From: Gemmatimonadales bacterium
GTDB lineage: Bacteria; Gemmatimonadota; Gemmatimonadetes; Gemmatimonadales; GWC2-71-9
Direction of reading: 5' to 3'
Length of the DNA: 64,000 nucleotides
Assembly (NCBI GenBank): GCA_044869265.1
Contig: JBIOXD010000050.1
Coordinates: 42,369 to 106,368, forward strand
Made by a program: the position numbers and the translations under genes. Under the pieces are notes generated by a model, which saw only the letters and a program-made list of their open reading frames with translations, was not told the DNA's origin and searched no databases. Positions 5,205 to 63,669 of the stretch are shown one piece after another. The stretch's first letter is position 1, and each line of letters begins with the position of its first letter.

Positions 5205-6457
5205 TGCGGGTTTTCATCAACGACAAAGCGGTCGATGTCCCGCGTGGCGCCCGAGTGCGCGACGCGGTTGCGCAGGCGGATGACGGCCTCGCGCGCCTGC
5301 TCGACACCGCCGCGTATGTGACGGATGCCGCCGGTCGTCCGATCGATTCGGGCGATCCGATCGCCGAAGCGGGCGCGGTGTTCCGCGTCGTGGTCTCCGC
5401 CAAACGGGAAGGGAAGCCCCCCCCCCGGCTGACCAAGGAGGCATTGCGCCGCTGGCCCAAGGCCGAGCTGCACGTGCACCTCGATGGCGCGCTGCGACCG
5501 GCGACGATGCTCGAGCTGGCGCGCGAGCAGGGGGGGGGGATTCGCCTTCCAGCCGACACACCGGATGGACTGGCGAAGGCGATGCTCGTGCGCGGCGCGC
5601 AGAGCCTCGAGGAGTACCTCGAGAAGTACATGATCACGCTGTCGGTTCTCCAAACGGCGCCTGCACTCGAACGCGTGGCGTACGAGTTCGTGCTAGATAA
5701 GGCGGCGGAGAATGTGCGCTACGTCGAAGTGCGGTACTCGCCGCTGCTGCATCGTCCCGCGTTGACCTTGGCGCAGGCCATTGAAGCGCCCCTCGCCGGG
5801 ATTCGGCGGGCGTCGGCGGAAACGGGAACGAAAGTGGGCCTCATCGTTTGCGCGATGCGCACCAAGCCGCCGGCCGAATCGCTCGAGCTCGCGCGAGTGG
5901 CCGCGGAGTATCACGGCGCCGGGGTGACCGCGTTCGATCTCGCGGGAGCCGAGCGCGGCCATCCAGCCCGGGATCATCGCGCGGCGTTCGAGTATGCGGC
6001 GTCGCACGGCATGGCCTGCACCTGTCATGCTGGTGAGGGCGATGGCCCACACTCGATCCATCAGGCGCTCTACGAGTGCGGCGCTCAACGCGTCGGTCAT
6101 GGAACACGCCTTCTTGAAGACCCGGTGTTGCTCGACGAGGTCGTTCAACGCCGTATCCCGCTTGAAATGTGTCTCACGAGCAACCTGCACACGCATGTCG
6201 TGTCGGCGGTGGCGGAACATCCCTTTCGACGCTATTTCGAGCAGGGCGTCGTGGTCACGCTGAACACCGACGGCCCGCTGACCGACGGCATCACGCTGAC
6301 CGACGAGTATTATCTCGCGCACACCGCATTGGGACTCGGTCCCGCCGAGCTGACGCGCGTGGTCCTCAATGCGTGCGAGAGCGCCTTTCTCCCGGAATAC
6401 GAAAAGGTCGCGCTGGTCGCACGGGTGCAGAGTGAGCTCGAGGGGGGGACTACTTGA
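5204..6457 (+). CDS. add: Adenosine deaminase with a ~75-aa N-terminal extension
   Basis: WPKAELHVHLDGALRP, CHAGE and TLNTDGP motifs of adenosine deaminase. The ATG at 5204 overlaps the upstream TGA (cTGATG). The longer ORF-track entry 4781..6457 overlaps the nucleotidase gene and is not used. Confidence 0.9.
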   Translation: MRVFINDKAVDVPRGARVRDAVAQADDGLARLLDTAAYVTDAAGRPIDSGDPIAEAGAVFRVVVSAKREGKPPPRLTKEALRRWPKAELHVHLDGALRPATMLELAREQGGGIRLPADTPDGLAKAMLVRGAQSLEEYLEKYMITLSVLQTAPALERVAYEFVLDKAAENVRYVEVRYSPLLHRPALTLAQAIEAPLAGIRRASAETGTKVGLIVCAMRTKPPAESLELARVAAEYHGAGVTAFDLAGAERGHPARDHRAAFEYAASHGMACTCHAGEGDGPHSIHQALYECGAQRVGHGTRLLEDPVLLDEVVQRRIPLEMCLTSNLHTHVVSAVAEHPFRRYFEQGVVVTLNTDGPLTDGITLTDEYYLAHTALGLGPAELTRVVLNACESAFLPEYEKVALVARVQSELEGGTT

Positions 6458-7881: not shown

Positions 7882-8726
7882 TGGGGCCTGGGGCCTGGGG
7901 CCTAGGGCCTGGGGATGTGAGTGACGCTTCGGCTGCGGTCCGAATGCATCTGGGGAAGCACAAACCGCGGGTCGCGATCGTCCTCGGCTCCGGCCTGGGA
8001 TTCCTCGCTGATGAAGTAGAAAAGCCGATCCGCATCACGTACAGCGCGATTCCCGGTTTTCCAGAGCCTGGAGTCGCTGGTCACAAAGGCGAGCTGGTTG
8101 CCGGGACGCTCGAGAAGGTCCCGGTGATCGTCCAGGCCGGACGCTTTCACCTTTATGAGGGCCATTCAGCCGCAACGGCGGGGCTACCCGCCCGCGTGTT
8201 TGGCGAGCTCGGCGTCGAGATCCTGATCGTGACCAACGCCGCGGGAGGCGTGCGGCGCACGTTCCAGGGCGGGACACTGATGCTCATCGCCGATCACATC
8301 AATCTCATGTGGCGCAATCCACTCGCCGGCCCGGCGCAGCCCGGCGAACAGCGCTTCCCTATCATGCACGATCCATACGACCGCGACCTGCGCGACCTCG
8401 CCCGAACCGTCGCCCGCGACCAGGGGATCGCGCTCGAAGAGGGTGTGTACGCCGCCCTGCTCGGCCCCTCCTATGAGACGCCTACCGAGGTTCGGATGCT
8501 CGAGCGACTGGGGGCGGATGCGGTCGGAATGTCCACCGTGCCGGAGGTGCTCGTGGCGCGCTCGCGGGGCATGCGCTGCCTGGGCTTCTCCATTATTACA
8601 AACCCCGGGGCAGGAATCACCAGCGAGGCCCTGTCCCACGAAGATGTCCTGGCGGTGAGCCAACAAGTGGCCCGCCGCTTGTCCGTCCTACTAAGAGGAA
8701 TCCTGGGCCGGTTGATCTTGGGTTAA
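7881..8726 (+). CDS. punA: Purine nucleoside phosphorylase (trimeric PNP / inosine-guanosine phosphorylase family)
   Basis: VAIVLGSGLG, GHKGELVAG, GRFHLYEGH, NAAGG and MSTVPEV motifs. The ATG at 7881 overlaps the nupC TAA (TAATG). The true start could instead be the GTG at 7917, downstream of the GGGGCCT repeat. Confidence 0.88.
   Translation: MGPGAWGLGPGDVSDASAAVRMHLGKHKPRVAIVLGSGLGFLADEVEKPIRITYSAIPGFPEPGVAGHKGELVAGTLEKVPVIVQAGRFHLYEGHSAATAGLPARVFGELGVEILIVTNAAGGVRRTFQGGTLMLIADHINLMWRNPLAGPAQPGEQRFPIMHDPYDRDLRDLARTVARDQGIALEEGVYAALLGPSYETPTEVRMLERLGADAVGMSTVPEVLVARSRGMRCLGFSIITNPGAGITSEALSHEDVLAVSQQVARRLSVLLRGILGRLILG
7883..7914. repeat. Heptanucleotide tandem repeat (GGGGCCT)x4 plus a terminal GGGG
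   Basis: Direct reading: ggggcct ggggcct ggggcct agggcct gggg, located exactly at the nupC|punA junction. Confidence 0.95.
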
Positions 8727-15366: not shown

Positions 15367-16530
15367 ATGGCTAACCCCTTCGAAGGCCTCTTCGATTCCG
15401 GCGACGTGCTCGAGCGCGTCGGTATCGACCTCACGGCGCAGGCGCGTCGCGGCGACCTCGAGCCGGTGCGCTGCCGGGACGCCGAGATCGCGCGCGTCAT
15501 TGATATCCTGCTGCGGCAGGGAAAAAACAACGCCGCGTTGGTGGGGCGCGCCGGCGTCGGCAAGACCGCGGTGGTCGAGGGATTGGCGCAGCGGATCGCT
15601 TCGGGCAACGTCCCGCCGGCATTGAAGGACGCTCGCGTGCTGGGGCTGGACCACGTGTCGATGCTCGCGGGAACGTCGTTCCGTGGGCAGTACGAGGACC
15701 GCATCCGGCGGCTGGTGCAGGCACTGCAGGCCGATCGCAATCTCATCCTCTTTGTCGACGAGCTCCACAACCTCATCGGGCAGGGGACTGCGATGGGGGC
15801 GGCGATGGACGCCGCCAACATGCTGAAGCCCGCTCTCGTGCGCGGAGACATTCGCGTCATCGGCGCGACCACCGGCGAGGAATACAACAAGTGGGTCAAG
15901 TCCGATCCCGCACTCGAGCGTCGCTTTCAGCCCGTCACCATCGAGGAGCTGGACGCCATTCAGACCTGGGAGGTGCTGGTCGCGCGGAGACCACGCTTCG
16001 AGCGCCATCACGCCGTGGCGATCTCGGACGACGCGCTCAAAGCGGCGATTGTGTTGACTGACCGGTTCGTTCCGGAGCGCGCTCGCCCCGACAAAGCGAT
16101 CGACGTGCTGGACGAAGCCTGCGCACACGCCCAGGCCACGGCGCAGGTATCGCCGGAGCTCGACAAGCTGATTCGCGACCGCAAGAAGCTCGAAGCGATG
16201 ATTCGGCGCGGGGCGACAGAAGAAGAGACGCGTGCTCCCGACGAGCCTTTGCCCGATCTTGCAACGGTGTTGCAGCGGTTTGGGGAAGAGATCGAAGAGC
16301 TGTTGGGCGGGCGGAAGCGGTCGAGGGCGGACGAAGGCGGTCCTGAGGTTCCGTCCTCGCCCGCCTCCGACCGCCCTCGTCCGCCTCCGACCGCCCTCGA
16401 CGAGCAGCGCGCCGACCTCGACGGCCGCCTCCGCGCCGAGCTCGAACGCCAGGGCATTGTGGTTACCGGCAAGGAAATCGCTCGGGTGGTCGCCGCAGCG
16501 GTGGGGAAGGGCATCGAGTGGGCCGGCTGA
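15367..16530 (+). CDS. Clp/Hsp100 D1-only AAA+ ATPase (no N-domain, no D2)
   Basis: Starts just before D1 (DLTAQARRGDLEPVRCRDAEIARVIDILLRQGKNNAALVG). Walker A GRAGVGKTAVVEGLA, Walker B LILFVDELHNL, VIGATT, ERRFQPV. Ends with VTGKEIARVVAAAVGKGIEW, which resembles the D1/D2 junction motif of ClpA/B/C. Confidence 0.8.
   Translation: MANPFEGLFDSGDVLERVGIDLTAQARRGDLEPVRCRDAEIARVIDILLRQGKNNAALVGRAGVGKTAVVEGLAQRIASGNVPPALKDARVLGLDHVSMLAGTSFRGQYEDRIRRLVQALQADRNLILFVDELHNLIGQGTAMGAAMDAANMLKPALVRGDIRVIGATTGEEYNKWVKSDPALERRFQPVTIEELDAIQTWEVLVARRPRFERHHAVAISDDALKAAIVLTDRFVPERARPDKAIDVLDEACAHAQATAQVSPELDKLIRDRKKLEAMIRRGATEEETRAPDEPLPDLATVLQRFGEEIEELLGGRKRSRADEGGPEVPSSPASDRPRPPPTALDEQRADLDGRLRAELERQGIVVTGKEIARVVAAAVGKGIEWAG
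16322..16400. repeat. Decamer array: 2 x CGAGGGCGGN-type units, ~20-nt spacer, then 4 inverted units including a 20-nt tandem duplication. Lies inside a CDS.
   Basis: cgagggcgga cgaaggcggt ... ccgcctccga ccgccctcgt ccgcctccga ccgccctcga. Positions 16361-16380 and 16381-16400 are 19/20 identical. Confidence 0.9.
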
Positions 16531-17762
16531 TCCGTCTTGCATCGCTCAGCGGCATGCTCGTCGCGATGGGTGCCGCGGGCGGCTGTCGCGAGCGCGCTCA
16601 AGCGGTGCAGAGCGAGGCGGAATTGAAGGACATGGTGCGCCGCATGATGCCGCGCGTCGGTCAGGCGGCGGGCCTTCCCTTCAAGCGTGAACCGACCGTG
16701 TTGCGGCGCTCGCGAGCGCAGGTGCGCGACTACGTCATTCACAAGTTCGATGAAGATCTGCCTCCCGCCGAACTCGCGGGACTCGAATCGTCGCTTCGCT
16801 TGTTCGGCCTGATTCCGGATTCTCTGCAGCTGCGCTCGACGATGATCGATCTCCTGACCGAGCAGATTGCCGGCTACTACGATCCCGATTCGAGCGCGCT
16901 CTACATCCCGGCGGATATCGAGCCGTCTCAGCTGCGCATCGTCGTGTCGCACGAGCTGGTGCACGCGCTGCAGGATCAATACGTGAAGCTCGATTCCATC
17001 ATCACGCAGCGACGCCGCAACGATCGGCGCTCGGCGGCGCAGGCAATTCTCGAAGGGCAGGCAACCGTCGCGCAGATTCCCGTCCTCATGCCTGAGCAGA
17101 ACCCCGACACATTCCCCCCGGGGTGGTTTTGGAAGCAGCGCGAGGTGATGGCACAGCAGCAGGCGCGCATGCAGGAGTTTTCGCGTGCGCCGCTGTGGCT
17201 GCGGGAAGGGCTGGTTTTTCCCTATCTGGGTGGTGCGGACTTCATCGTGTGGTACCGGCGCAAATACTTCGATGTATCGATACTGGACCCACGCCGGATG
17301 CCCACGTCGACCGAGCAGGTTCTGCATCCCGACCGCTACGCCGCCAAGGACGCGCCGACGGACGTCATCTTCACCGGCGCGAGCGTCGACACGGTGCAGT
17401 ACGAAGACAATCTCGGCGCGTTCGAAACACGACTGCTCTTCCAGCAGCATTTGAACAATGAGGCCGAGGCCGAGCAGCTCTCCGAGGGGTGGGACGGCGA
17501 TCGGTATCAAGTGCTCGGCCCCAAGGCGGACGTGCTGGTGTGGTATAGCGTCTGGGATGACGGCGCTGCGGCGTCGCGATTCGCGCGCGGCCTCGAGCGC
17601 GCTTGGGCCAAACGCCGGTCAGGCGATCGGTCGGACGGACGGTCGGAAATAAAGCAGCTGACGATCGACGGGCGGCCCGTTGTACGACTCGTCGATGCGC
17701 CGGCGAGTTGGAAGGGATGGCGCGCGCTGCCGGCCGTTCGACTTAGTGCAGCAAGCGACTGA
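16518..17762 (+). CDS. Putative zinc metalloprotease lipoprotein (HExxH, gluzincin-like)
   Basis: The GTG at 16518 gives a lipoprotein-like signal (LVAMGAAGGC). VVSHELVHALQDQ HExxH motif with a downstream ILEGQAT. Overlaps the AAA+ gene by 13 nt. Family not recognised. Confidence 0.6.
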   Translation: MGRLIRLASLSGMLVAMGAAGGCRERAQAVQSEAELKDMVRRMMPRVGQAAGLPFKREPTVLRRSRAQVRDYVIHKFDEDLPPAELAGLESSLRLFGLIPDSLQLRSTMIDLLTEQIAGYYDPDSSALYIPADIEPSQLRIVVSHELVHALQDQYVKLDSIITQRRRNDRRSAAQAILEGQATVAQIPVLMPEQNPDTFPPGWFWKQREVMAQQQARMQEFSRAPLWLREGLVFPYLGGADFIVWYRRKYFDVSILDPRRMPTSTEQVLHPDRYAAKDAPTDVIFTGASVDTVQYEDNLGAFETRLLFQQHLNNEAEAEQLSEGWDGDRYQVLGPKADVLVWYSVWDDGAAASRFARGLERAWAKRRSGDRSDGRSEIKQLTIDGRPVVRLVDAPASWKGWRALPAVRLSAASD

Positions 17763-22732: not shown

Positions 22733-24436
22733 ACCCTTCAGAAAGTCCGGCAGCGGCCGCGTATTGAGGATGTCGGCCGCGGTCAGCCACGCGCGCCGCG
22801 CGTTCCCGACGGCAAACCGCATGAAGCCGAGCTCGCGCGTGTTGTGCGCGTCGGTCGAGAGCACGAACCGCACACCGTGCGATTTGGCAGCCGCCGCCAG
22901 GGTATCGGGCAAGTCGAGCCGCTCGCTGCCGTTGATCTCCAGCAGGCACTTCGCCTTTGCCGCGGCTTTCGCTACCACGTCGAAGTCGAGCGGGTAGGAA
23001 GGCCGGTTCGGAAGGATTCTCCCCGTCGGATGGCCGATCGCGTCCACCCAGCGATTCGCGATGGCCGCGAGCAGGCGATCGGTCAACTGTCGCTCCGTCT
23101 GTTTCAGGCCGTAGTGAATCGTCGCCACCACGTAGTCGGCCTCGGCGAGCACATCGTCGGGGAGATCGAGCTTGCCGCTCTCCAGGATGTCCATTTCGAC
23201 GCTTTTCAGAACCCGAAACCCGCGCATGCCCTTGTTCAATCGATCGATCACCTTCCATTGGGCGCGCAGCTCGGCTGGGCTTTGACCAGCCATCGCTGTC
23301 CGCGGCGAATGATCGGTGATCGCGATGTACGCAAGCCCGAGTGACCGCGCGGCCTCGACCATCTCGCCGAGAGTCGCTTTGCCGTCGCTCGCGTCGGTAT
23401 GCATCTGCAGATCACCGCGGATATCGTCGAGCACCACGAGTTCGGGCAGCCGGTGCTCCTTGGCGAGCGCGATTTCGCCGCGGTTCTCGCGCATCTCGGG
23501 TGGGATCCAATCGAGTCCCAGGGCCGCGTACACCTCTTGTTCGGTCCGGCCAGAAATGGATTTCGCGCCCTTGAACACGCCGTACTCGTTGAGCTTGAGA
23601 TCCTTGCTCTGGGCGATCTTGCGCAGCTCGATGTTGTGCGCCTGAGAGCCGGTGAAGTATTGCATCGCGGCGCCGAAGCAGCCGGGCTCGACAACGCGAA
23701 GATCGACCTGCAGTCCGCCCGAAAGGCGTACCGTGGACCGGGTGTCGCCCTGGGACGCGACCTGCGTGACGTCGCCGAACCTCCCGAACCGCTCGATGAC
23801 CGCTGCTGGCTTGGTGCAGCTGACGACGATATCGAGGTCCCCGATAGTTTCCTTGCGCCGCCGGAAGCTGCCCGCGACATCGATGTCGGTAATCCCGCCC
23901 CCTGCCTGCAAATGCTCCACGATCGCGCGCGCATACTGCTCCGCCACGTGCAGGACGATTCGCTTCGGGCCCTCTCCCGCGGCGGCACTGGCGACGCCCT
24001 CGCGAAGCTTGTCCAGCAGCTTCGGTCCGAATCCGCCCAGCTTGGCGATCTTGCCCTGCTCGAGCGCTGCCTTGAGATCGGCGACGCTGTTCACCTTCAA
24101 CTGGTCATGAAACAGTTTGACGCGTTTGGGGCCGAGACCGGGGATCCGGAGCAGATCGAGGAGTCCAGGTGGTATCGTCGCGACGAGCTGTTGGCGTTGC
24201 GGGAGCGTGCCGGTCACGACGAGCGCAGTAATCTCTTTCGCGATGCCCCCCCCGATCCCCGGCAGGTCCGTCAAATCGAACTCGCCGCCTTTCACCAGCT
24301 CCGCGAGCGGATCGGGGTGATCCGCGACGGTGCGCGCGGCGTTACGGTACGCACGAACCTTGAAGGGATTTCCCTCCGAGATCTCCAACAGGTCGGCGAC
24401 TTCTCCCAGCAAACGAGCGATGTCGGCGTTCTGCAT
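22709..24436 (-). CDS. polX: Family X DNA polymerase with C-terminal PHP domain (PolX)
   Basis: MQNADIARLLGEVADLLEISEGNPFKVRAYRNAAR N-terminus, HhH motifs, GSFRRRKETIGDLDIVV, and PHP-domain motifs (LQMHTDASDG, DHSP, STDAH). Confidence 0.92.
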   Translation of the reverse strand: MQNADIARLLGEVADLLEISEGNPFKVRAYRNAARTVADHPDPLAELVKGGEFDLTDLPGIGGGIAKEITALVVTGTLPQRQQLVATIPPGLLDLLRIPGLGPKRVKLFHDQLKVNSVADLKAALEQGKIAKLGGFGPKLLDKLREGVASAAAGEGPKRIVLHVAEQYARAIVEHLQAGGGITDIDVAGSFRRRKETIGDLDIVVSCTKPAAVIERFGRFGDVTQVASQGDTRSTVRLSGGLQVDLRVVEPGCFGAAMQYFTGSQAHNIELRKIAQSKDLKLNEYGVFKGAKSISGRTEQEVYAALGLDWIPPEMRENRGEIALAKEHRLPELVVLDDIRGDLQMHTDASDGKATLGEMVEAARSLGLAYIAITDHSPRTAMAGQSPAELRAQWKVIDRLNKGMRGFRVLKSVEMDILESGKLDLPDDVLAEADYVVATIHYGLKQTERQLTDRLLAAIANRWVDAIGHPTGRILPNRPSYPLDFDVVAKAAAKAKCLLEINGSERLDLPDTLAAAAKSHGVRFVLSTDAHNTRELGFMRFAVGNARRAWLTAADILNTRPLPDFLKGLRRARNR

Positions 24437-24441
24437 CTAAT

Positions 24442-24540
24442 CGAGGGCGGTCGAGGGCGGACGATGGCGGGCGAGGGTGTCAAGCAGCACATAGAAAGCT
24501 ACCGCCGTTGACCGCCTTCTACCGCCCTTGACCGCCCATT
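24442..24540. repeat. Two facing arrays of four 10-bp units (CGAGGGCGGN x4, ~20-bp centre, then ACCGCCNTTG-type x4)
   Basis: tcgagggcgg tcgagggcgg acgatggcgg gcgagggtgt ... accgccgttg accgccttct accgcccttg accgcccatt, in the polX / TonB-receptor divergent intergenic region. Confidence 0.9.
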
Positions 24541-24600
24541 TCTCCAGTGATACGCTAGCCCCTCCCGAAAACCACACCTCAACCCGTCGGAGGCCGACGC

Positions 24601-27600
24601 ATGCTGCGCAAGCTTCTGGGGCCGGTGTTCCTGGCTCTCGCGTTTCCCGTCGTTCTCGCCGCGCAATCGCAGGCTACGACCGGTGTCGTTCGCGGTACGG
24701 TCACGGATCCAGGCGGCGCGCCGGTTGCGGGCGCTACAGTGAGTCTGCGCGAAACGCAAACCGGCTTTCAACGGCAGGTCACGAGCAACGAGCGTGGCAT
24801 CTTCATCGCTTCGCTCCTTCCGCTCGGCACGTACGAGATCACGGCACGCGCTGTCGGCTTCGGCGAGTCGCGCCGTACTGGGGTTCGAGTAGGCGTCGGC
24901 GAGACCCTGAATCTGAACCTTCAGCTCGCGGCGGTGACGCTGCAGGCGGTGGTCGTCGAAGCGACGCAGCCGATCGTCGAGGTGACCAAGGTGGAGAGCT
25001 CGACCCGCCTGCCCGAGGAAGCGGTGGCGCGTCTGCCCAATAACGGGCGTAACTACCTGAACCTCACGCTCTTGACGCCCGGCGTGGCGGTCGTGCAAGG
25101 GCCGGACGGCGACGAGATCTCCATCGCCGGCCAGAAGGGAATCCATAACAACGTGTCGGTCGATGGGGCCGACTTCAACAATCCGTTCTTCGGCGAGCAG
25201 CGCGGAGGTCAACGTCCGCCATTCACATTCAACCTGGACGCTGTCGAGGAGATGGTGGTCACTGCGAACGGTGCCAACGCCGAGTTCGGGCGCTCGGGCG
25301 GCGGGTTCGTGAACGTGGTGACCAAGTCGGGGACCAACGAGCTCCATGGATCGTTGCACTATTACGGCAAGGACGGCGCGCTCTCGGGCCAGCCGCATTT
25401 CCAGGACGTGACGTTGCCGGCGCCCGACTTCACGCAGCACCAATTCGGATTCACACTCGGCGGACCGATCAAGCGCGACAAGGCTTTCTTCTTTGTCGCG
25501 TACGATCAGCAGATCTTCGACGAGGTGAAGCAGACCGATCCCAACCGCATCGATCCCGCGTTGCGTGCCTGGATGGACACAGCGTTCGGCGGCGCGCTGG
25601 CGGGCGATTACGGTCCGATTTCACGAACCAACGATGCACGCGCGCTACTGGCAAAGCTCGATTTCAACCTCTCGGATCGGCACCGTGCATCGCTGAAGTA
25701 CAACTACAGCTGGTCGGAGCAGGTGAACGGCACATTCGACGTCGACAGCTGGGCTCGCAGCGCGAATGGGTTGGAGCGGGATCACTCGAACGCAATCAAT
25801 GGCAGCCTCATGTCGATCCTGTCGCCGCGCGTCTCGAACGAGTTCCGCTTCCAGTTTTCGCGTGAAGACCGGCCGCGTCCGTACGGCGGTCCCCGGAGCA
25901 CGCTGCTGGGGGCTGACCCGACCGGCACAGGCGATCGGCCGTTCCCCGACGTCGCAATGGACTTCGCGAACGGGTATCGGTTCGGCCTGCCGTTCTTCCT
26001 GCCGATCGACTACTACGACACGCGGATCCAGGTCCTGGACAACATCTCGTTTCAGAAAGGGGACCACTTCTTCAAGGTGGGTGCCGAGTACAACCGGGTG
26101 AACTCGGTGCAGACGTTCATCGGGTTCTCGAACAGCCGCTACATCTTCAGCTCGGTGCAGGGATTCCTGAATTATGTCGGGAGCGACTCCCTCTACGTCG
26201 AATGCTCCGACGGCTCGTCGAACTTTACCGGCGCCTGCCCCGGCACCACCACGATCACCGGCCCCGTGCTGCTATATCTGCAACAGGCCGGCGTGGACCG
26301 GTCGGTGCGCGAGGCCGGCACGCAGGAAATCCCGCAGACCGAGCTCGCAATCTACATCCAGGACACGTGGAAGCCCAATTCCAAGTGGCTGTTCAACTAC
26401 GGGTTCCGTTGGGAAGCACAGATCCAGCCGGGCTTGTTGTCGCCGCGCGACTCAGTGTATTACGCCGTCTACTACGATTCGACTGTGACCAACTCAAACG
26501 GAACGTTCCGCTTCCCGTCGGACGGCACAATCCCGTCTGACAAGAAGATGTTCCAACCGCGGCTGGGCGTCACGTTTGACCCCAAAGGGGACGGCCGTCA
26601 GGTGTGGCGGGCCAACGCGGGGATCTACTACGCACGCATACCAGGGTTGAACCTGGCATCCACGCGATCGACGGACGGTTACCGCGGCGTCACGCTGTTC
26701 GGCTCGAGCGCGACGGTGGGATTTCTCCCGCCGCCATCCTTCCCGAACCTGTTCCCGTCGAACGTGCCGCTGGCGTCAGTCGCATTCCCTTCGGTGTTCG
26801 TGTTCGATCGCAACTTCTCAAACCCGCGTACCATCACCGCGACGCTGGGCTACGAGCGGCAGATCGGGGGCGATCTCGGGCTGCTGCTCAGCTACACGCA
26901 TGCGAAGACCGATCACAACACGCGCTTCATCGACCGCAACGCGGCGGTCTTCGGCGCCCCGTTCGGCACCGGGCCGCGTGCGCTGTCGACCCTGACGACG
27001 GTTGAGGCAAGCGCCAAGTCCAACTACAACGGCGTCACCGTGGGTCTGCGGCGCGTGCTCGACCCCAACTTCCAATTCCAGGCGAACTACACGCTGTCGT
27101 GGGACAAGTCGGACGACGACAACGAGCGGGATCCGTTCACCTTCCGGTACGCGCGCGCGGATAACCTGGCTCCAGAATACAACTGGAGCGATCGCGACCA
27201 GCGGCACCGGTTCAATGGCTGGGTGCTCAAGCACATCGGCGGCGGCCTGTTCCTCAACAGCCGCCTGAGCATCTACTCGGCACAGCCCACCTCGGAGAGC
27301 TGCGGCCCCAGCCCCTTCAGCCCCTTCGCGCCGCCGAGGGGCCAGCGCGCGACCTCTCCCGCCGATCGCAATTGTGCCGACGGCTCCGTCCTGACGCGCA
27401 ACACGATGCGCAAGGACAACGACTATCTCTCACTGGACCTGGGTCTGACGTGGCCATTCAGCATCGGTCGCGGCCGTATGGAAGTGATCGCGCAGATGTT
27501 CAACGTGACTGGCTCGGCCAACTTCAAGGATCCCGCGGCGACGAGCTTGCTGTTCAACTTCGACGGCACGCTGCGCAGCGGGTACGGTGATCCGCAACAG

Positions 27601-27630
27601 GCGCAGCTCGGGGTGCATTACGTGTTCTGA
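24601..27630 (+). CDS. TonB-dependent receptor, Oar-like (carboxypeptidase-regulatory N-domain, plug, large beta-barrel)
   Basis: Signal peptide. TTGVVRGTVTDPGGAPVAGATVSLRETQTG (CarboxypepD_reg), then NYLNLTLLTPGV...QKGIHNNVSVDGADFNN plug-like region. 1009 aa, C-terminal ...LGVHYVF. Confidence 0.85.
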   Translation: MLRKLLGPVFLALAFPVVLAAQSQATTGVVRGTVTDPGGAPVAGATVSLRETQTGFQRQVTSNERGIFIASLLPLGTYEITARAVGFGESRRTGVRVGVGETLNLNLQLAAVTLQAVVVEATQPIVEVTKVESSTRLPEEAVARLPNNGRNYLNLTLLTPGVAVVQGPDGDEISIAGQKGIHNNVSVDGADFNNPFFGEQRGGQRPPFTFNLDAVEEMVVTANGANAEFGRSGGGFVNVVTKSGTNELHGSLHYYGKDGALSGQPHFQDVTLPAPDFTQHQFGFTLGGPIKRDKAFFFVAYDQQIFDEVKQTDPNRIDPALRAWMDTAFGGALAGDYGPISRTNDARALLAKLDFNLSDRHRASLKYNYSWSEQVNGTFDVDSWARSANGLERDHSNAINGSLMSILSPRVSNEFRFQFSREDRPRPYGGPRSTLLGADPTGTGDRPFPDVAMDFANGYRFGLPFFLPIDYYDTRIQVLDNISFQKGDHFFKVGAEYNRVNSVQTFIGFSNSRYIFSSVQGFLNYVGSDSLYVECSDGSSNFTGACPGTTTITGPVLLYLQQAGVDRSVREAGTQEIPQTELAIYIQDTWKPNSKWLFNYGFRWEAQIQPGLLSPRDSVYYAVYYDSTVTNSNGTFRFPSDGTIPSDKKMFQPRLGVTFDPKGDGRQVWRANAGIYYARIPGLNLASTRSTDGYRGVTLFGSSATVGFLPPPSFPNLFPSNVPLASVAFPSVFVFDRNFSNPRTITATLGYERQIGGDLGLLLSYTHAKTDHNTRFIDRNAAVFGAPFGTGPRALSTLTTVEASAKSNYNGVTVGLRRVLDPNFQFQANYTLSWDKSDDDNERDPFTFRYARADNLAPEYNWSDRDQRHRFNGWVLKHIGGGLFLNSRLSIYSAQPTSESCGPSPFSPFAPPRGQRATSPADRNCADGSVLTRNTMRKDNDYLSLDLGLTWPFSIGRGRMEVIAQMFNVTGSANFKDPAATSLLFNFDGTLRSGYGDPQQAQLGVHYVF

Positions 27631-27633
27631 TAC

Positions 27634-27725
27634 GGCGACGCTACGATAAGGCGACGCTATAAAAGAGCGACGCTAGGAGAAGGCGAGTTCGTTCCTCCTA
27701 GCGTCGCTTTTTTCCTACCGTCGCC
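27634..27725. repeat. GGCGACGCTA-type units: three direct, then two inverted copies
   Basis: ggcgacgcta (27634), ggcgacgcta (27650), agcgacgcta (27666), tagcgtcgc (27699), taccgtcgcc (27716). Confidence 0.85.
27667..27713 (+). terminator. Rho-independent terminator (13-bp stem plus T6), probably bidirectional
   Basis: GCGACGCTAGGAG (27667-27679) pairs with CTCCTAGCGTCGC (27695-27707), followed by TTTTTT. On the opposite strand the hairpin is followed by CTCTTTTAT. It lies between two convergent genes. Confidence 0.8.
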
Positions 27726-28558: not shown

Positions 28559-28678
28559 GGCATCTCCTGGTAAGTAGAGGCGTTGATTGAACGGCGTTTA
28601 ATGAACGGCGTCGAAGGGAATACGTCAAAATCGAAGACGTCGCAAGAGACGTCGAGAAAAAGACGTGTTGACGACGTA

Positions 28679-29090: not shown

Positions 29091-29198
29091 TACGCCTTTA
29101 CGGTGTTTTTCTACGCCTCCTGCGACGCCTTTTGCTTTGACGCCTTTCCTTTGACGCCGTCTTTCGACGGTTTAAGTTTGACGAGTTTGTAGTTGACA
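29091..29198. repeat. Array of about 8 (T)TTGACGCC-like units spaced 12-21 bp, immediately upstream of tRNA-Lys
   Basis: tacgcc 29091, tacgcc 29112, gacgcc 29124, ttgacgcc 29137, ttgacgcc 29151, tcgacgg 29164, ttgacga 29178, ttgacag 29193. Confidence 0.8.
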
Positions 29199-29199
29199 G

Positions 29200-29272
<73 letters not shown>

Positions 29273-43140: not shown

Positions 43141-44571
43141 ATGGCGTTGCTTGAGCTGGGAGGGCGGGGGGGGCAACGGTATTCCCTCCCGCAGGGCGAG
43201 GTGCTCCTCGGTGCAGATCCATCCTGCGCCATCTCCCTAGCTTCTCCCGGCGTCCTCCCACTTCACGCGAAAATCAAGACAGCAGGCGACGGCGAAGTCG
43301 TAATCAGCAAGGCCGTCCCTGAAGCAGAGGTTCTGATCAATGGGGTGCGCTTGGGCGCCGAGCCCACGCCACTGCTGCACGGCGACAAGGTCGAGGTCGC
43401 AGGGCAGGAGCTGACGTTCGTCGACGAGCGACGCAGCGGCAGCACTCAATACATGCACGCGATAACGCCCCAAGCTGCGTCGCAGGCCCAGGAAAGCAAA
43501 AGTGCCAAGGCGACGGCCAATACAGGCGGTCGCGTCGTATCACTGACAGACGGCCGCGAATACGCGGTCGCCGGATCCTCACTCGTGTTCGGGCGGGATG
43601 CGTCCTGCGATGTCGTCGTTCCGGGCAAGGACGTGTCTCGCCGCCACGCCGAAATCGTGCAAACACCGAAAGGGTACTTGATCGTCGATTCGAGCACGAA
43701 CGGGACTTCCGTCAATGACGCGCGGGTCGAAGGGCAGCGGCTGCTCGCCCGTGCCGATGTGATCACGATTGGTGAAGAGAAATTCCGCTTCTACGCTGAC
43801 ACGCCGGCTCCGGCGCCGGCGCCGCCCCCGCCTCCTCAGAAAGCAGAGGCTGGTGGTGGGGTGACGGGCGCGCGTCTGCGAGAGACGGTTCACGGAATGC
43901 CGGCGGCACGCCCCCCTGGCACGTCTGCGCCGCCCCCGCCCCCGCCCCAAGCCCCGGCCCCTCGGCCGTCTGGGGGCGGGGGCGCCCTCGCCGCGTTCAT
44001 CGTTCGCAGCGGTGCGCTGAAAGGGCAGCGGTTGGTGGTGAAAACGCCGGTCGTCAACATCGGCCGGGCCGAGTACAACGATCTGGTTTTGACGGATGAG
44101 TCGGTATCTACTGCGCACGCCAAACTGCAACGTCGTGAAGGCGTATGGGTATTGATAGACCTCGACTCGACTAATGGAACATTCGTCGATGGCGATCAGA
44201 TAAAGGGGGAAATCCCGCTCGCGCCAGGCGCGAATGTCCGCTTCGGGGAAATCGGGCTGGTCTTCGAGCCGACGGATGATGCGGCGGCGGTCGCCAAGGG
44301 CGGTGCGACGCGCATGATGGAGAAGATGACGATGGAGCCCGCCCCGGCGCCGAAACCGGCGCCGAAGCCTCCACCGCCCAAGCCCGCGGCTCAGCCCCCG
44401 AAGCCCGTCGGTGCGAAACCCGTGGGTGCGAAACCCGTGGCTGCGAAACCCGTGGCCGCAAGACCCAAGGGAGCAAAACCTCCGGCCGCGCAGCAGAAAG
44501 CGAAGGGCTGCGGCGCGAGTGCGGTGATTCTCCTGGTGGTCGTTGGATTGGTTTACTGGGTGTTCATCTAG
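43141..44571 (+). CDS. Tail-anchored protein with three FHA domains and Pro-rich linkers
   Basis: Three FHA-like blocks: LGADPSCAISL...INGVRL...GDKVEVAG; FGRDASCDVVVPGKDVSRRHAEI...DSSTNGTSVND; IGRAEYNDLVLTDESVSTAHAKL...DLDSTNGTFVDG. C-terminal TM segment AVILLVVVGLVYWVFI. Confidence 0.8.
   Translation: MALLELGGRGGQRYSLPQGEVLLGADPSCAISLASPGVLPLHAKIKTAGDGEVVISKAVPEAEVLINGVRLGAEPTPLLHGDKVEVAGQELTFVDERRSGSTQYMHAITPQAASQAQESKSAKATANTGGRVVSLTDGREYAVAGSSLVFGRDASCDVVVPGKDVSRRHAEIVQTPKGYLIVDSSTNGTSVNDARVEGQRLLARADVITIGEEKFRFYADTPAPAPAPPPPPQKAEAGGGVTGARLRETVHGMPAARPPGTSAPPPPPPQAPAPRPSGGGGALAAFIVRSGALKGQRLVVKTPVVNIGRAEYNDLVLTDESVSTAHAKLQRREGVWVLIDLDSTNGTFVDGDQIKGEIPLAPGANVRFGEIGLVFEPTDDAAAVAKGGATRMMEKMTMEPAPAPKPAPKPPPPKPAAQPPKPVGAKPVGAKPVAAKPVAARPKGAKPPAAQQKAKGCGASAVILLVVVGLVYWVFI
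44410..44469. repeat. 15-bp tandem repeat x4 (GGTGCGAAACCCGTG) encoding (G/A)AKPV pentapeptides
   Basis: ggtgcgaaacccgtg ggtgcgaaacccgtg gctgcgaaacccgtg gccgcaagacccaag. Confidence 0.9.
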
Positions 44572-46593: not shown

Positions 46594-46611
46594 GAGGCTG
46601 GGGCCTAGGGC

Positions 46612-48170
<1,559 letters not shown>

Positions 48171-53837: not shown

Positions 53838-54484
53838 GGCGCGCTTCGTCCCTTGCCGAGAATCCGCGCTCCAAACCCCAGCGTCACGCGATGTACCAGC
53901 TGCGCGGATGTGAAGCCGTCGGCATGCAGCGCGGGAGTCGAAAACCGATGCAAGTCATAGCGCAGCGACACCCCGAAGTCGTGGGCGGGCCCTCCCAGCT
54001 TGGTCGGGGACCAGTAGAGACCGGCCGTGCCGACGGCCCAGAGCCCGGAGCCGCCTCGAAACAATCCGGTTTCATCAGCGGGCAGATACTTGATGCCACC
54101 GATCCCCACGCGCGCCGCCAGACTGGGACTGACTTCACGACGCGCCCCGACCGTGAAGGCGATCACCGTCACAGAGTTGAATTTCGCCGCCTCACCGCTC
54201 TCGTGGCGCTGTAATGCCGCCCACGACACGTCGAGAACGGCTTCGGGTGTCCAGGGGCCGTTCGTGCGCTCGCCGATGCTCAGCGCGAGCACCGGCCCGA
54301 TAGCGGGCTTCGCATCGACGGGCTCGACGATCACGTCGTGCACGAGAGCCGTCGTATAGCGAGCGCCGACGGTTGCGTGAACGGAAGCCTGGGCGGCCGG
54401 ACGGCCCGACGGCCAGACGGCCAGGGCGGTCAGCAGAATGAGCGTGTGTGCGGCCGTCCGGCCGTCCGACCGTTCGACCGTCAA
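53834..54484 (-). CDS. Small outer-membrane beta-barrel protein (OmpW/porin-like, family not resolved)
   Basis: TTG start overlapping the znuB-like stop (TTGA). Signal LILLTALAVWPSGRPAAQA. Alternating beta-strand pattern. Confidence 0.5.
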   Translation of the reverse strand: MTVERSDGRTAAHTLILLTALAVWPSGRPAAQASVHATVGARYTTALVHDVIVEPVDAKPAIGPVLALSIGERTNGPWTPEAVLDVSWAALQRHESGEAAKFNSVTVIAFTVGARREVSPSLAARVGIGGIKYLPADETGLFRGGSGLWAVGTAGLYWSPTKLGGPAHDFGVSLRYDLHRFSTPALHADGFTSAQLVHRVTLGFGARILGKGRSAP

Positions 54485-59561: not shown

Positions 59562-59580
59562 GGGATGAACTATAGCCGCG

Positions 59581-59728
59581 TGCGCCGTGCGCCGTGAGCC
59601 GTACGCCGTTGCCATTCCGGCGCACTGCGCACGGCTCACACCGCACGTTTTAGGGCGGCGCACTGCGGACGGCGCACGGCGCGCGTTTTAGTCCGGCGCA
59701 CTGCGCACGGCTCACGGCGCACGTTTAG
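59581..59728. repeat. ~37-bp tandem repeat x3 (built from GCGCAC-type heptads, each ending CGTTTTAG) preceded by one inverted partial copy
   Basis: Units at 59617-59653, 59654-59691 and 59692-59728 (ccggcgcactgcgcacggctcacaccgcacgttttag and variants). An inverted copy gcgtgcgccgtgcgccgtgagccgtacgcc lies at about 59579-59608. Confidence 0.9.
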
Positions 59729-62467: not shown

Positions 62468-63669
62468 TTGCCCGGATCCAGCGCGATGCCGCCCTGGCCC
62501 CGGATCTCGAAGTGCAGGTGCGGACCCTCGTCGCTCGATTCACCACCCACGTGGCCGATTACCTGTCCACGGATCACACGTTCTCCCTGCCTGACCGTCG
62601 CATCGTTGAGATAGGCGTACACCGTGTAATAGCCGCCGCCGTGGTCGATGAGCACCGACGTGAGATACAGTCCGAGGCTTCCCGCGAGACTGACCGTCCC
62701 GGGCGCGACGGCGCGAACCGCGGTTCCCACCGGCGCCTTGATGCCGATCCCATGGCGCGGAATGCGCGTGTTGTTGGGCCCCGTCGTCGTCCCAAACGGG
62801 TAGATGATCTGCCCCTCGACCGGCCAATCGAGGGCGCCGAGATCCGCCGTGGTAATCGATCCCGTCGCTGCGGTAGTGCCGCGCGACTCGGCTTCGCGCC
62901 GCGCCCGTTCCAGCGCTTCGATCCGGTCGTTGAGCGTGCGCTCGTCCCGCTCGAGTCGTGTGAGCCGCTGCTGCGCCTGACGGGCGCTGCGTCGTGTTTC
63001 GCGAAGGCTGCTCTCGCGCGCCTGCTCGAGCGAGACGTAGCGCCCGAGCTCGTCGGTCCGCTCGCGCCGGCGGCGGGCCAGCGTTTCGCGCGAGTCGACC
63101 AACAGCTGTCGCTGGCGTGCCACGCGGTCGCGCAGCTTTTCAACATCGTTGGCAAGCAGGCGGTCCTGGCGACTCACCAGACTGAGATACTTATACCGCG
63201 AGAGGAGGTCCCCGAAGCTCTCGGCCGCGAAGTAGACCTGCCAGCTGTAGAGCGGCCCGCGCTTGTAAATCTCGACGAAGCGCCGTTCCAGTACGGCGCG
63301 CTTTTCGAGCAGTGCATCTTGCGCGATCAGCAGATCGACCGTGATCTGATCGATCTGCCCGCCAAGCCCCGTGATCTGGCGGTCCAACTCGTTGACGATG
63401 CGATTCGTGCTTTGCCTCTGACGCTCGATATTCGAGATCTCGTCAGTGAGCGAGTGTGCCTGAGTGCGCAACCGGGCCAGCTCCTGCTCTACTTGCGACC
63501 GCTCGCGCCGGATGTCCTCGAGTCGGCGCTGGTTGTCCTGCATTTGCTGGTGGTAGGTCGGGCGCTGGGCGTGCAACGGGACACGGGAAACGGGAAACGT
63601 GAAAAGCACGAGACAAGTGACAAGCAGCCCCGTGTCCCGTTTCCCGTTTCCCGCTTCCCGTGACTTCAT
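62416..63669 (-). CDS. envC: EnvC-like coiled-coil M23 peptidase-domain protein
   Basis: Long coiled coil, then an M23/LytM domain (HGIGIKAPVGTAVRAVAPGTV...IDHGGGYYTVYAYL...GPHLHFEI). ATGA overlap with ftsX. Confidence 0.85.
   Translation of the reverse strand: MKSREAGNGKRDTGLLVTCLVLFTFPVSRVPLHAQRPTYHQQMQDNQRRLEDIRRERSQVEQELARLRTQAHSLTDEISNIERQRQSTNRIVNELDRQITGLGGQIDQITVDLLIAQDALLEKRAVLERRFVEIYKRGPLYSWQVYFAAESFGDLLSRYKYLSLVSRQDRLLANDVEKLRDRVARQRQLLVDSRETLARRRRERTDELGRYVSLEQARESSLRETRRSARQAQQRLTRLERDERTLNDRIEALERARREAESRGTTAATGSITTADLGALDWPVEGQIIYPFGTTTGPNNTRIPRHGIGIKAPVGTAVRAVAPGTVSLAGSLGLYLTSVLIDHGGGYYTVYAYLNDATVRQGERVIRGQVIGHVGGESSDEGPHLHFEIRGQGGIALDPGNWLRAPRPRATRPSTPR
63578..63660. repeat. 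Inverted heptad arrays: GGGACAC GGGAAAC GGGAAAC, 32-nt spacer, GTGTCCC GTTTCCC GTTTCCC GCTTCCC
   Basis: Direct reading of 63578-63599 and 63632-63660. The arms can pair over 21 nt with 2 mismatches. They lie in codons 4-31 of envC. Confidence 0.9.

Follow-up and report, generated by a model that had tools for sequence, protein, structure and literature searches.

The AAA+ ATPase gene described here is located at 15367..16530 on the plus strand of the window, which is the whole stretch of 64,000 nt that was analysed. It encodes a single-domain, ClpB/ClpC-D1-like protein of 387 aa, with a remnant of the middle-domain coiled-coil. Pfam analysis revealed AAA and AAA_lid_9, and the best PDB matches were ClpB (4hse and 1qvr; E 1e-78) and ClpC, covering residues 13-319. 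In the host protein, the D1 AAA+ module of the ClpB/ClpC type, including AAA_lid_9, precedes a coiled-coil insertion; a second ATPase domain is absent from the 387 residues. At the C-terminal end, the alignment showed a conserved tail of 44 aa (16397..16527, plus strand; LDEQRADLDGRLRAELERQGIVVTGKEIARVVAAAVGKGIEWAG), which presumably resembles the ClpB/ClpC D1-D2 junction. The next ORF (16518..17762, plus strand) has a 13-nt overlap with the AAA+ stop and encodes a putative, lipoprotein-like metallopeptidase with a HELVH motif; the Pfam match of its product to DUF6782 was weak and under the cut-off.

The first-pass annotation had pointed to a 20-nt tandem duplication in the linker of the AAA+ gene, and its coordinates were confirmed: 16361-16380 (ccgcctccgaccgccctcgt) and 16381-16400 (ccgcctccgaccgccctcga) are identical at 19/20 bases. 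The key feature is not the duplication, which makes up one arm, but the two facing arrays of 10-base units that act as the arms of one long hairpin of 92 bases (16305-16396). The G-rich 5' arm (16305..16340, plus strand) contains about 3.7 units of GGCGGNCGAR and is itself a 10-nt array (16306-16342, x3.7). The C-rich 3' arm (16361..16396, plus strand) is complementary to it, and the two 20-nt copies (16361..16400) represent units 2-5 of the C-rich array. The TRF results for this array were a 10-nt period x5.1 (16351-16401) and a 20-nt period x2.5 with 93% matches (16351-16399). Each arm has 36 nt, the arms are 86% complementary, and the loop of 20 nt (16341..16360, plus strand) contains a small inner stem and encodes PEVPSSP. 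The inverted form that had been noticed at 16322-16340 is indeed the reverse complement, with 2 mismatches, within a longer arm. As read from the sequence, the stem begins with GGGCGG (16305) and ends with CCGCCC (16396).

This inverted repeat ranks first among all those in the window. With up to 3 mismatches allowed, 6 matches to the 19-mer were counted across the window where chance predicts 0.14, and none of 100 shuffles reached that number. The RNA fold of the hairpin region has -78.9 kcal/mol, compared with -54.4 +/- 3.6 for dinucleotide shuffles (z -6.8, 0/200); the DNA fold has -44.5 kcal/mol (z -5.9). The antisense strand folds slightly better than the sense strand (-82.7 vs -78.9 kcal/mol). 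No terminator-like sites were found on either strand at 15900-16900, and a promoter scan around the hairpin was likewise empty; the stem is followed by TCGACGAGCAG rather than by a T run. The Rfam 15 search of the whole window at the gathering score returned two tRNAs only, with the hairpin unmatched. Neither GTAG nor CGTC was read at the ends of the hairpin. The attC sites of integrons carry the core sites R''/R' (RYYYAAC ... GTTRRRY) around an imperfect palindrome; here GTTGGGC occurs at 16302-16308 by chance, and no RYYYAAC partner was read on the 3' side (CCGCCCTCGACGAG).

Within the AAA+ gene, the hairpin is in frame between two conserved helices and codes for residues ~313-344 of the protein. 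In the AlphaFold model, which is poor (shallow alignment, mean pLDDT 40), residues 313-343 have no secondary structure and are flanked by helices 298-312 and 344-361. Successive copies of the 10-nt unit fall in each of the three frames and yield no peptide repeat. For example, GGC GGG CGG AAG CGG TCG AGG GCG GAC GAA GGC GG in the 5' arm is translated as GGRKRSRADEGG. The two 20-nt copies had been said to encode different peptides, and the translations are (P)ASDRPR for copy 1 and PPPTAL(D) for copy 2. The observation that the ORF stays open into the conserved tail also holds more widely: frame 0 is preserved through the arrays in 148/148 full-length orthologs, although the retrieval favoured intact genes and out-of-frame copies would rank low. 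The linker lengths are all multiples of 3 among the 137 unique linkers. Since the C-terminal tail is conserved, the reading frame appears to be enforced across the arrays.

More than 100 AAA+ orthologs with 85-92% identity were named as Gemmatimonadales. Counts were made over the 148 full-length orthologs and their 137 unique linker sequences, and 67 genome orthologs were used for folding. The ortholog proteins have 378-392 aa, and the LL..QR segment has 78-135 nt; the linker is variable in length, as the first-pass annotation had suspected, and also in sequence. Of the 137 unique linkers, 64 have ungapped arms that are 20 nt or longer and pair at 80% or more; in 31, the arms reach 30 nt or more. 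The period was the same in both halves of the linker in all cases (38/38). Folding of the 67 genome orthologs placed the lowest MFE of the gene in the linker in 69% of them, with a mean of -61 kcal/mol compared with about -49 elsewhere. A hairpin of at least 20 pairs was found in 37/67 of them, and z was below -3 in 28/67 against shuffles preserving the composition of each half. Perfect stems reach 26 bp in L001 and 17 bp in L014. More than 130 independent assemblies show this architecture, among them contigs of 1.2-1.8 Mb (L015 and L067). Weak or decayed hairpins occur in about 40-50% of orthologs, and decayed linkers were found in L006, L011, L033, L068 and L098. No empty site was found in the AAA+ gene among the Gemmatimonadales orthologs, in which the hairpin-poor members keep a degenerate linker of 78-105 nt. 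By eye, neither flanking direct repeats (target-site duplications) nor terminal inverted repeats distinct from the arrays were seen. These sequence comparisons show that the presence of the hairpin, and not its sequence, recurs at this codon position across soil Gemmatimonadales.

The arm units vary among the orthologs (GGCGGNCGAA, GGCGGCGAAR, GGACGGCC, GGCGGATC and GGGGAGGTYG), with periods of 8, 10 and 11, and the linker peptide is therefore hypervariable. The 5' arm is in every case the G-rich one. The arms of the same ortholog pair at -43.8 kcal/mol, whereas arms mixed from different orthologs pair at -34.4, and the diagonal dominates in the type-by-type pairing matrix. Composition accounts for part of the stability, since arms of different orthologs still pair. 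The type-A stems are nearly invariant, with compensatory double changes in 3/24 pairs, and a G-C to C-G swap was read between L010 and L030. Covariation within type A was thus nearly uninformative, and per-sequence folding with half-preserving shuffles and cross-ortholog arm pairing were used instead. The mismatches on the sense strand are mostly A(5')·C(3') (65, vs 23 G·U), an excess that argues against an optimised sense-RNA helix. It fits the retention of Lys/Glu codons in the 5' arm and the avoidance of Leu/Phe codons in the 3' arm; the comparison of G·U with A·C is compatible with both codon-level selection and an antisense-RNA reading.

Unrelated arm types were observed in AAA+ genes that are otherwise 97-98.5% identical. 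The arm types are exchanged on patches of roughly 200 nt, two independent recombination patches centre on the hairpin, and the alleles are mosaics. Unit dimers of types A and B (up to 2 mismatches) were not found outside the linker in ~1.5 Mb of related DNA. When up to 2 mismatches were allowed, the pattern GGCCGTCCGGCCGTCC matched many GC-rich places and was judged uninformative. Two related unit families recur beyond a single site: GGCGGATN was found both in the linker of L055 and in L038 (21010), and GGAGGTTGG both in the linkers of L042/L049 and in L040 (21085).

The linker of the window has 114 nt, vs 111 nt in the type-A relatives; its 3' array is longer by 6-9 nt and its loop shorter by 3 nt. 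Because the net difference is only +3 nt, a simple recent insertion of 20 nt, as the first-pass annotation had considered, cannot be reconstructed. Linker length also argues against an insertion origin: the linkers of L103 and L115 are equal in length with unrelated arrays, and the hairpin-poor L006, L033 and L098 keep linkers of similar length. The two alternatives that had been offered are each supported in part. The arrays at this site are old, as they are found in orthologs down to ~72% aa identity, which agrees with an old and tolerated array; the compensating changes are represented by the balancing indels of the window copy.

In simulation, a change of -20 nt or +10 nt in the array fuses the AAA+ ORF with the ORF at 16518..17762, giving 791 aa after deletion of 16361-16380 and 801 aa after +10 nt. 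The idea that an alternative frame opens on unit removal is thus correct for the window copy, but in the orthologs this openness is that of the background: the fusion frame is open in 89/144 orthologs (62%) vs 66% of control windows in the same gene, and the other alternative frame in 40% vs 38%. Frameshift fusion as a conserved feature was rejected on this basis. In one ortholog (L064), a frameshifting deletion that ends at the hairpin centre fuses the two ORFs.

Facing arrays were also found at other sites. The unit family had been reported to recur upstream of polX, where 24441-24477 (TCGAGGGCGG x3.7) does face 24501-24537 (ACCGCCCTTG x3.7). This intergenic pair (24441..24537; z -7.3 on the plus strand) is flanked on one side by the polX start codon (24436, on the minus strand) and on the other by the promoter-like region that belongs to a TonB-dependent-receptor-like gene (24601). 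Facing 8-mer arrays (CGGCCAGA / CCGTCCGA; 54394..54482) adjoin the stop codon of a minus-strand gene for an ABC-3 permease (54481-55311). At 59579..59726, between two minus-strand genes, a CGTGCGC heptamer array (x4.4) faces CGGCGCA-type repeats arranged as a 38-nt unit x2.9. The facing heptamer arrays AACGGGA / CCCGTTT (63570..63661; z -6.6 on the minus strand) extend over the first ~33 codons of an M23-peptidase ORF (62416-63669, minus strand). Each locus has its own unit, and the facing-array hairpins fold on both strands with z from -3.6 to -7.3, neither strand being consistently favoured.

In the relatives, the intergenic facing arrays are present or absent and sit beside start or stop codons. 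The closest relatives L001 and L002, with an 89-nt spacer, lack the polX-upstream hairpin, which is present with three different units in other relatives. Half-arrays occur at this site in L012, L019 and L022, and a single-unit quasi-palindrome in L003. Facing arrays constitute a class: the 310 short-period arrays in 1.19 Mb include 29 facing pairs, and 48 long inverted repeats were counted vs 2 in shuffled DNA. A 'coding-through' classifier based on GC at codon positions was discarded, as it missed known coding hairpins.

With confidence that is evenly balanced, we favour a translated palindromic minisatellite that grew in place by slippage and template switching, is tolerated in a loop, and is kept in frame via the C-terminal tail. 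Its seed would be a small quasi-palindrome, in which the Gly-Gly codons GGCGG and the Pro-Pro codons CCGCC close the stem. Facing arrays with a non-multiple-of-3 unit, one G-rich and the other its C-rich complement, could fold in single-stranded DNA and in mRNA. Replication slippage would alter and homogenise the units inside an arm, and template switching between the arms would maintain their complementarity and common period. Breaks or recombination at the hairpin might then swap whole arm sets between strains. The site would be tolerant as the encoded segment is an unstructured loop that links two helices in the coiled-coil remnant of a ClpB/ClpC-D1-like ATPase, and purifying selection may be limited to the frame, which must reach the conserved 44-aa tail, and to hydrophilicity. 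The peptide, which is rich in Gly/Arg/Glu/Lys and then in Pro/Ser/Ala, would therefore be a by-product of the three-frame translation of the arrays. The hairpin looks dispensable because decayed linkers exist, and a required function is probably absent. Growth in place rather than transposition is suggested by the confinement of types A and B to the linker and by the half-arrays, the seed and the absence at the polX-upstream site.

According to published work (PMC8794818), perfect stems can arise and be repaired through template switching during replication, and 5'-base-directed correction can favour G-C over C-G pairs. The polarity of the G-rich 5' arm matches the latter prediction, but the published argument presumes G·U tolerance, which is itself an RNA-level constraint. 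Other observations also speak against the minisatellite. A hairpin that stays at one codon position down to ~72% protein identity while its sequence is completely turned over is also expected from selection on structure, and neutral arrays of 3-5 units would be expected to decay or to disappear by deletion. In bacteria, instability is the rule for long palindromes; with five in 64 kb, either a permissive repair background or a benefit would be needed. The two hairpin-centred recombination patches could instead mean that either the loop peptide or the structure is under selection.

Selection on the hairpin itself is the leading alternative, although we regard it as rather unlikely. The hairpin would be a sequence-independent cis element within the coding region, and the intergenic arrays would belong to the same functional class. 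The double-stranded RNA could direct RNase III-type processing or mRNA stability, or could act as a ribosome brake on the AAA+ gene and the coupled peptidase; a DNA hairpin or cruciform could also be bound by a structure-specific protein. The order-wide recurrence of the structure at one position with free sequence is in agreement with such selection, and so are the arms that co-vary by type (with the 3 compensatory pairs and the L010/L030 swap), the position of the intergenic members next to start or stop codons, the folding of all members on both strands, and the exchange of alleles between lineages. Moreover, the strict G-rich-5' polarity would fit a masking of C-rich RNA from Rho. However, the weak or decayed state of so many orthologs and the lack of the polX-upstream copy in the closest relatives suggest that the hairpin is dispensable; the sense-strand excess of A·C over G·U mismatches and the absence of an Rfam family, of a terminator or promoter signature and of a consistently favoured strand also speak against such selection. 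It is rather unlikely that these loci represent a lineage-wide Gemmatimonadales class of facing-array hairpins, kept regardless of sequence by selection or by a dedicated hairpin-directed process, with the AAA+ copy as an order-wide coding hairpin and its peptide incidental. In such a class, the AAA+ hairpin would control the AAA+/metallopeptidase pair, or would be a break-and-repair hotspot that swaps loop cassettes.

The palindromic shape, the length of ~90-100 nt, the in-frame translation and the tolerant loop recall a mobile palindromic element of the Rickettsia palindromic element, REP/REPIN or MITE type, which would have been inserted in frame and be undergoing domestication. Unit families that are related across loci (16305 and 24441 in the window; GGCGGATN; GGAGGTTGG) and the presence or absence at the polX-upstream site also favour this, but it is very unlikely: each locus has its own unit, the hairpin-poor orthologs show a degenerate linker of similar length and no empty site, and the half-arrays and single-unit seeds fit growth in place. 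The sequence was also read as lacking separate terminal inverted repeats, a target-site duplication and a GTAG/CGTC head. A dispersed mobile family was rejected for types A and B, which are linker-only in ~1.5 Mb. We give still less credence to a contingency locus, in which gain or loss of 10-nt units would give a normal, truncated or peptidase-fused product, or to hairpin-driven frameshifting or bypassing. The units are not multiples of 3 (10 nt, and 8 or 11 nt in other orthologs), the fusion ORFs of 791 or 801 aa exist, and the L064 deletion fuses both ORFs; however, all 148 orthologs are in frame 0, with the retrieval bias mentioned above, the openness of the fusion frame does not exceed that of the control windows, 3-5 units are few for efficient slippage, and no slippery site came to notice, outside any systematic search. 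The least credible explanation is that no feature exists at the nucleic-acid level, so that a Gly/Arg-rich and then Pro-rich linker pairs by its composition, or that the assembly is wrong. Although the cross-ortholog arms do pair at -34 kcal/mol, half-composition shuffles are beaten, the 10-nt units give no peptide repeat, the stems of L001 and L014 are perfect, and the same architecture is found in non-coding DNA. These controls and the independent assemblies refute this explanation. Transposition, programmed frameshifting and assembly artefact were each without support.

The locus represents a natural case in which a nucleic-acid structure rather than a protein sequence recurs within a conserved bacterial gene, and in which peptides arise as three-frame read-outs of non-triplet repeats. 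If slippage and template switching are true, such loci record an ongoing mutational process, its 5'-to-3' polarity and its interplay with codon selection. If the hairpins are selected, they would be sequence-free cis elements of a class not yet described, in a soil phylum that is abundant and poorly studied. Protein alignments are also led astray by the arrays, since genes with 98% identity elsewhere carry three linker types that look unrelated, and the facing-array segments are likely recombination and deletion hotspots in MAG assemblies. An incomplete literature search, which leaves novelty unproven, found no description of facing tandem arrays as a class in Gemmatimonadetes or other bacteria.

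Among the known systems, the Rickettsia palindromic elements (RPEs), reportedly described in 2000 by Ogata and colleagues, are palindromic repeats located in frame in protein-coding genes. The AAA+ hairpin is similar in being a palindrome of ~100 nt that is translated in a structurally tolerant part of a conserved functional protein, with the peptide as a by-product of the DNA. The RPEs are dispersed multi-copy families of similar sequence with empty-site orthologs; whereas the arms of the AAA+ hairpin are locus-specific, consist of short tandem units and vary among orthologs, and no empty site was found. PARCELs are also intragenic tandem repeats of DNA with dyad symmetry. They encode a defined 25-residue motif (75-nt unit, in frame) and are horizontally spread, whereas the AAA+ array units have 8-11 nt, are out of frame and encode no protein motif.

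REP, BIME and REPIN sequences are abundant GC-rich hairpins between operon genes and by stop codons, like those at 54394 and 59579. REPs are extragenic, conserved in sequence and RAYT-linked, with a GTAG/CGTC head; none of these traits was seen here, where the DNA covered comprised the 64-kb window and flanks of up to 21 kb from relatives, and types A and B are linker-only in ~1.5 Mb. Papers on these elements include PMC3116915, PMC3733652 and PMC8266576. Template switching makes reverse-complement copies and repairs stems in single events (PMC8794818), and hairpins from replication template switching and quasi-palindrome correction are also the subject of PMC8604942. The predicted excess of G-C over C-G (PMC8794818) matches the arm co-evolution and the G-rich 5' arm observed here. 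These studies concern short stems in RNA genes or yeast coding sequences, and are not known to describe tandem units in both arms or order-wide persistence in a bacterial coding region. The coding palindromes of Nematomorpha mitochondria are a compromise between stem complementarity and amino-acid selection (PMC6649704). They are likewise long inverted repeats within transcribed and translated genes; however, both of their arms encode conserved protein regions, with perfect repeats of up to 284 bp, whereas the AAA+ arms have 20-45 nt, consist of tandem units with codon-biased mismatches, and encode a hypervariable loop.

The AAA+ gene at 15367-16530 (+) contains facing arrays of 10-nt units (16305-16401), which are translated inside a variable linker between two conserved helices. 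The C-rich array was detected by Tandem Repeats Finder as a period of 20 nt in 2.5 copies (16351-16399, 93% matches), and equally as a period of 10 nt in 5.1 copies (16351-16401, consensus CCGCCCTCGA); the second array, GGCGGTCGAA in 3.7 copies, lies at 16306-16342. The two 20-nt copies described in the first-pass annotation were correctly placed and read, with 16361-16380 and 16381-16400 identical at 19 of 20 positions. The arrays are mutually reverse-complementary: their arms (16305-16340 and 16361-16396) are 36 nt each, 86% complementary and 20 nt apart, and form the top-ranked inverted repeat of the 64-kb window. With up to 3 mismatches allowed, a 19-mer of the linker array matches the window six times, where 0.14 matches would be expected. 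The hairpin folds at -78.9 kcal/mol as RNA (z -6.8 against dinucleotide shuffles) and at -44.5 kcal/mol as DNA (z -5.9); the antisense strand, at -82.7 kcal/mol, is slightly better than the sense strand.

The encoded single-domain protein (387 aa; Pfam AAA and AAA_lid_9) is strongly conserved in soil Gemmatimonadales (>100 clusters, 84-92% identity), and its nearest solved structures are the first ATPase domains of ClpB and ClpC, together with the beginning of the coiled coil of the middle domain. The arrays correspond to residues ~313-344, flanked by two conserved segments, ...FGEEIEELLGG before them and the tail L(D/E)EQR...GIVVTGKEIARVV...GKGIEWAG after them. A low-confidence structure model predicts no secondary structure at residues 313-343 and helices on either side (298-312 and 344-361); with a mean pLDDT of only 40, it lends weak support to a loop between helices. 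Because the unit is 10 nt long, three units make one 30-nt super-period in which all three frames are read. Three copies of GGCGGNCGAR thus give G-G-R-(R/K)-R-S-(K/R)-A-D-E, which equals the type A linker peptide GGR(R/K)RS(K/R)ADEGG exactly.

The related loci (L numbers) used for the orthologs comprise 69 from Gemmatimonadales genomes and 80 from metagenomes, which yielded 148 full-length genes with 137 different linker DNAs. The linker ORF is open in 148/148 of these genes, and the linker lengths (78-135 nt) are all multiples of 3. The ortholog alignment revealed linker peptides that look unrelated, including type A (RRRSKADEGG...PSPAxDRPRPP), type B (GEGRRKAAKEAAA...PPPxADVRRP), type C (RPAGRTAETA...PSGRQAVRPS) and many others. 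In DNA, every type is a facing array pair with a different unit: GGCGGNCGAA in type A, to which the window linker belongs; GGCGGCGAAR in type B; the 8-mer GGACGGCC in type C; the 8-mer GGCGGATC in L055 and L058; GGGGAGGTYG in L042, L046, L049 and L054; GGCGGTGGAC in L040; and the 11-mer GGACGGTCAAG in L145. Perfect stems reach 26 bp in L001 and 17 bp in L014.

The first-pass annotation had also considered a recent duplication of 20 nt, and suggested a check for an alternative frame that is open when one unit is removed. The window linker is 114 nt long, only 3 nt longer than the 111 nt of most of its 16 type-A relatives, and a clean 20-nt insertion could not be reconstructed. In the MAFFT alignment the 3' array is extended at its end by 6-9 nt and the loop is shorter by 3 nt. 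With 5.1 units against ~3.8-4 in the relatives, the window has one 10-nt unit more than they do, offset by other indels. Deletion of 16361-16380 in silico, or addition of one 10-nt unit, joins the AAA+ ORF with that of the downstream peptidase (791 or 801 aa). From the linker on, 62% of orthologs have the fusion frame open, compared with 66% for control windows of the same gene; being no more open than the controls, it gives no sign of a maintained switch. The downstream gene, whose GTG start overlaps the AAA+ stop by 13 nt (16518-16530), encodes a lipoprotein-like putative metallopeptidase with an HELVH (HExxH) motif and a weak DUF6782 match below cut-off. The order of the two genes resembles a split FtsH-like pair, and an array losing 20 nt or gaining 10 nt would join them. 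In the metagenome-assembled genome L064 (3970-4030), a deletion of ~220 nt with one breakpoint at the hairpin centre has removed the 5' arm and fused the two ORFs in frame (933 aa); this is either a genuine deletion associated with the hairpin or a fault of the assembly.

Folding the AAA+ genes of 67 orthologs in sliding 120-nt segments placed the MFE minimum of the gene in the linker in 69% of them (mean -61 kcal/mol, against ~-49 elsewhere). Of these 67, 37 fold into an unbranched hairpin with 20 or more pairs; even when the shuffles held the composition of each half, G-rich and C-rich, constant, z was below -3 in 28/67 and below -2 in 45/67. Of the 137 unique linkers, 64 carry ungapped arms of ≥20 nt at ≥80%, and 31 carry arms of ≥30 nt. 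The period was equal in both halves in 38/38 cases. Own arms pair at -43.8 kcal/mol, against -34.4 for arms drawn from different orthologs, and the diagonal dominates the pairing matrix of types A, B and C. Because the stems hardly vary within one type, classical covariation is weak there (3/24 pairs). Controls refuted both composition alone and assembly artefact as the source of the hairpin.

The linker types are scattered together across the gene tree, and among the 25 pairs with ≥97% identity outside the linker, 8 differ in type. For example, L103, of type C, matches L115, of type B, at 98-99% identity over 2.36 kb, without gaps, outside a patch consisting of the ~95-nt hairpin and ~60 nt of raised divergence on each side. 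The linker of L115 shares 93% identity with its counterparts in L116 and L020; elsewhere, the genes of these two are only 88-90% identical to that of L115. L021 (compared with L098, L033 and L101) shows the same imported-linker pattern in another clade. Unrelated hairpin alleles occur in genes 97-98.5% identical, in patches of ~200 nt with source lineages 10-15% divergent. The L103/L115 and L021 patches are short tracts of recombination with the hairpin at their centre. Two such patches in comparisons of ~2.4 kb hint at, but do not prove, a hotspot or selection.

The site between polX and a TonB-dependent-receptor-like gene (24436-24601), with facing 10-mer arrays at 24441-24537, has the hairpin present or absent among close relatives. 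The closest relatives, L001 and L002, have an 89-nt spacer and no hairpin. The unit is GGGCGGTCGA in the window, GGACGGTAAG in L004, L016, L023, L026 and L067, and GGTAGAGGAC in L040 and L042; L012, L019 and L022 have the C-rich half only, and L003 has a quasi-palindrome of a single unit, GACGGTAAGAGG|CCTTCTTGCC. Judged from sequence comparison, the arrays seem to grow from local seeds and to decay in situ rather than to transpose. A search of ~1.5 Mb of related DNA found no type A or B arrays outside the linker, which agrees with growth in place. The last C-rich unit in the window gives TTGACC, 17 nt upstream of a conserved TACGCT; the hairpin-less relatives have CTTGCC at that position.

The polX site is one of four further facing-array sites in the window; the others include 8-mers at 54394-54482 and 7-mers at 59579-59726, directly after the stop codons of the minus-strand ABC-3 (54481-55311) and ABC-2 (59725-60975) permease genes, respectively. 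The C-side of the latter is built as a 38-nt unit in 2.9 copies (59617-59726). Further 7-mers (63570-63661) overlap the first ~33 codons of the minus-strand M23-peptidase ORF (62416-63669); translated from the annotated ATG, the two arms and the loop between them would yield an N-terminus resembling a signal peptide, MKSREAGNGKRDTGLLVTCLVLFTFPVSRVPLHA. Given that start, 63570-63669 (minus) may be a second coding hairpin. Short tandem arrays also occur at 44399-44455, 27629-27686, 28579-28615 and 29124-29158, the units being a 15-mer (CGAAACCCGTGGGTG, 3.8 copies) and 14-16-mers near the tRNA gene at 29200-29272. The heptamer GGGGCCT forms unpaired arrays of ~4.7-4.9 copies at 7882-7914 and 46601-46633, 39 kb apart, without a facing complement. 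At 5406-5550, runs of 10 C (~5418-5427) and 10 G (~5531-5540), 100 nt apart, belong to a 25-nt, 80% inverted repeat within coding-looking sequence.

In 1.19 Mb of Gemmatimonadales DNA, 29 facing pairs account for 58 of the 310 short-period arrays; a separate scan found 48 long inverted repeats in 1.34 Mb, against 2 in shuffled sequence. The 5' arm is the G-rich array in every periodic facing pair, which by symmetry is true of both strands. This polarity was observed in 15/16 non-linker cases (one neutral) and 64/64 strong linker hairpins, and in none of the ~80 strong hairpins in the window and L001-L160 does the C-rich arm come first.

The evidence best supports a palindromic minisatellite, for which we infer slippage within the arms and template switching between them. 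Together, these two processes would generate and homogenise it; the minisatellite would sit in a loop-coding segment tolerating almost any hydrophilic peptide, its sole constraints being the reading frame and the avoidance of hydrophobic codons. Template switching is reported to create and repair perfect stems, with a 5'-base-directed correction that favours G-C over C-G pairs (PMC8794818). If G·U pairs are tolerated, this correction offers a possible reason for the G-rich 5' arm; avoidance of an exposed C-rich RNA segment is another candidate.

In the main rival, selection acts on the hairpin itself, as an RNA or DNA element independent of sequence; this would equally explain why it persists at one position while its sequence varies freely. 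Against this still plausible reading stand the dispensability of the element in many lineages, the lack of a recognisable signal among the features searched, and the A·C-rich mismatch spectrum. The commonest mismatch in ungapped arms is an A of the 5' arm facing a C of the 3' arm, and A·C plus C·A mismatches number 65 against 23 G·U, the opposite of the pattern from an optimised sense-strand helix. Such a bias would be expected if the 5' arm keeps Lys/Glu codons (AAG, GAA) and the 3' arm avoids their complements CTT and TTC (Leu/Phe). The slightly better folding of the antisense strand follows from this bias; with both strands folded, the other hairpins of the window showed no consistent strand preference. 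An in-frame mobile element of the Rickettsia type, REP/REPIN, an attC site, a terminator, contingency switching and a recoding site each fail at least one tested defining feature.

A literature search of incomplete coverage found no description of such a facing-array class. Among the closest precedents are the Rickettsia palindromic elements, which occur in coding regions. The others are the coding palindromes of Nematomorpha mitochondria (PMC6649704), the PARCELs (PMC2996958) and the hairpins made by template switching (PMC8794818). None of the four is known to unite the traits of the linker hairpin: facing tandem arrays of non-triplet units that persist at one codon position across the order while unit and period turn over, alleles exchanged like cassettes, and a strict polarity with the G-rich arm 5'.
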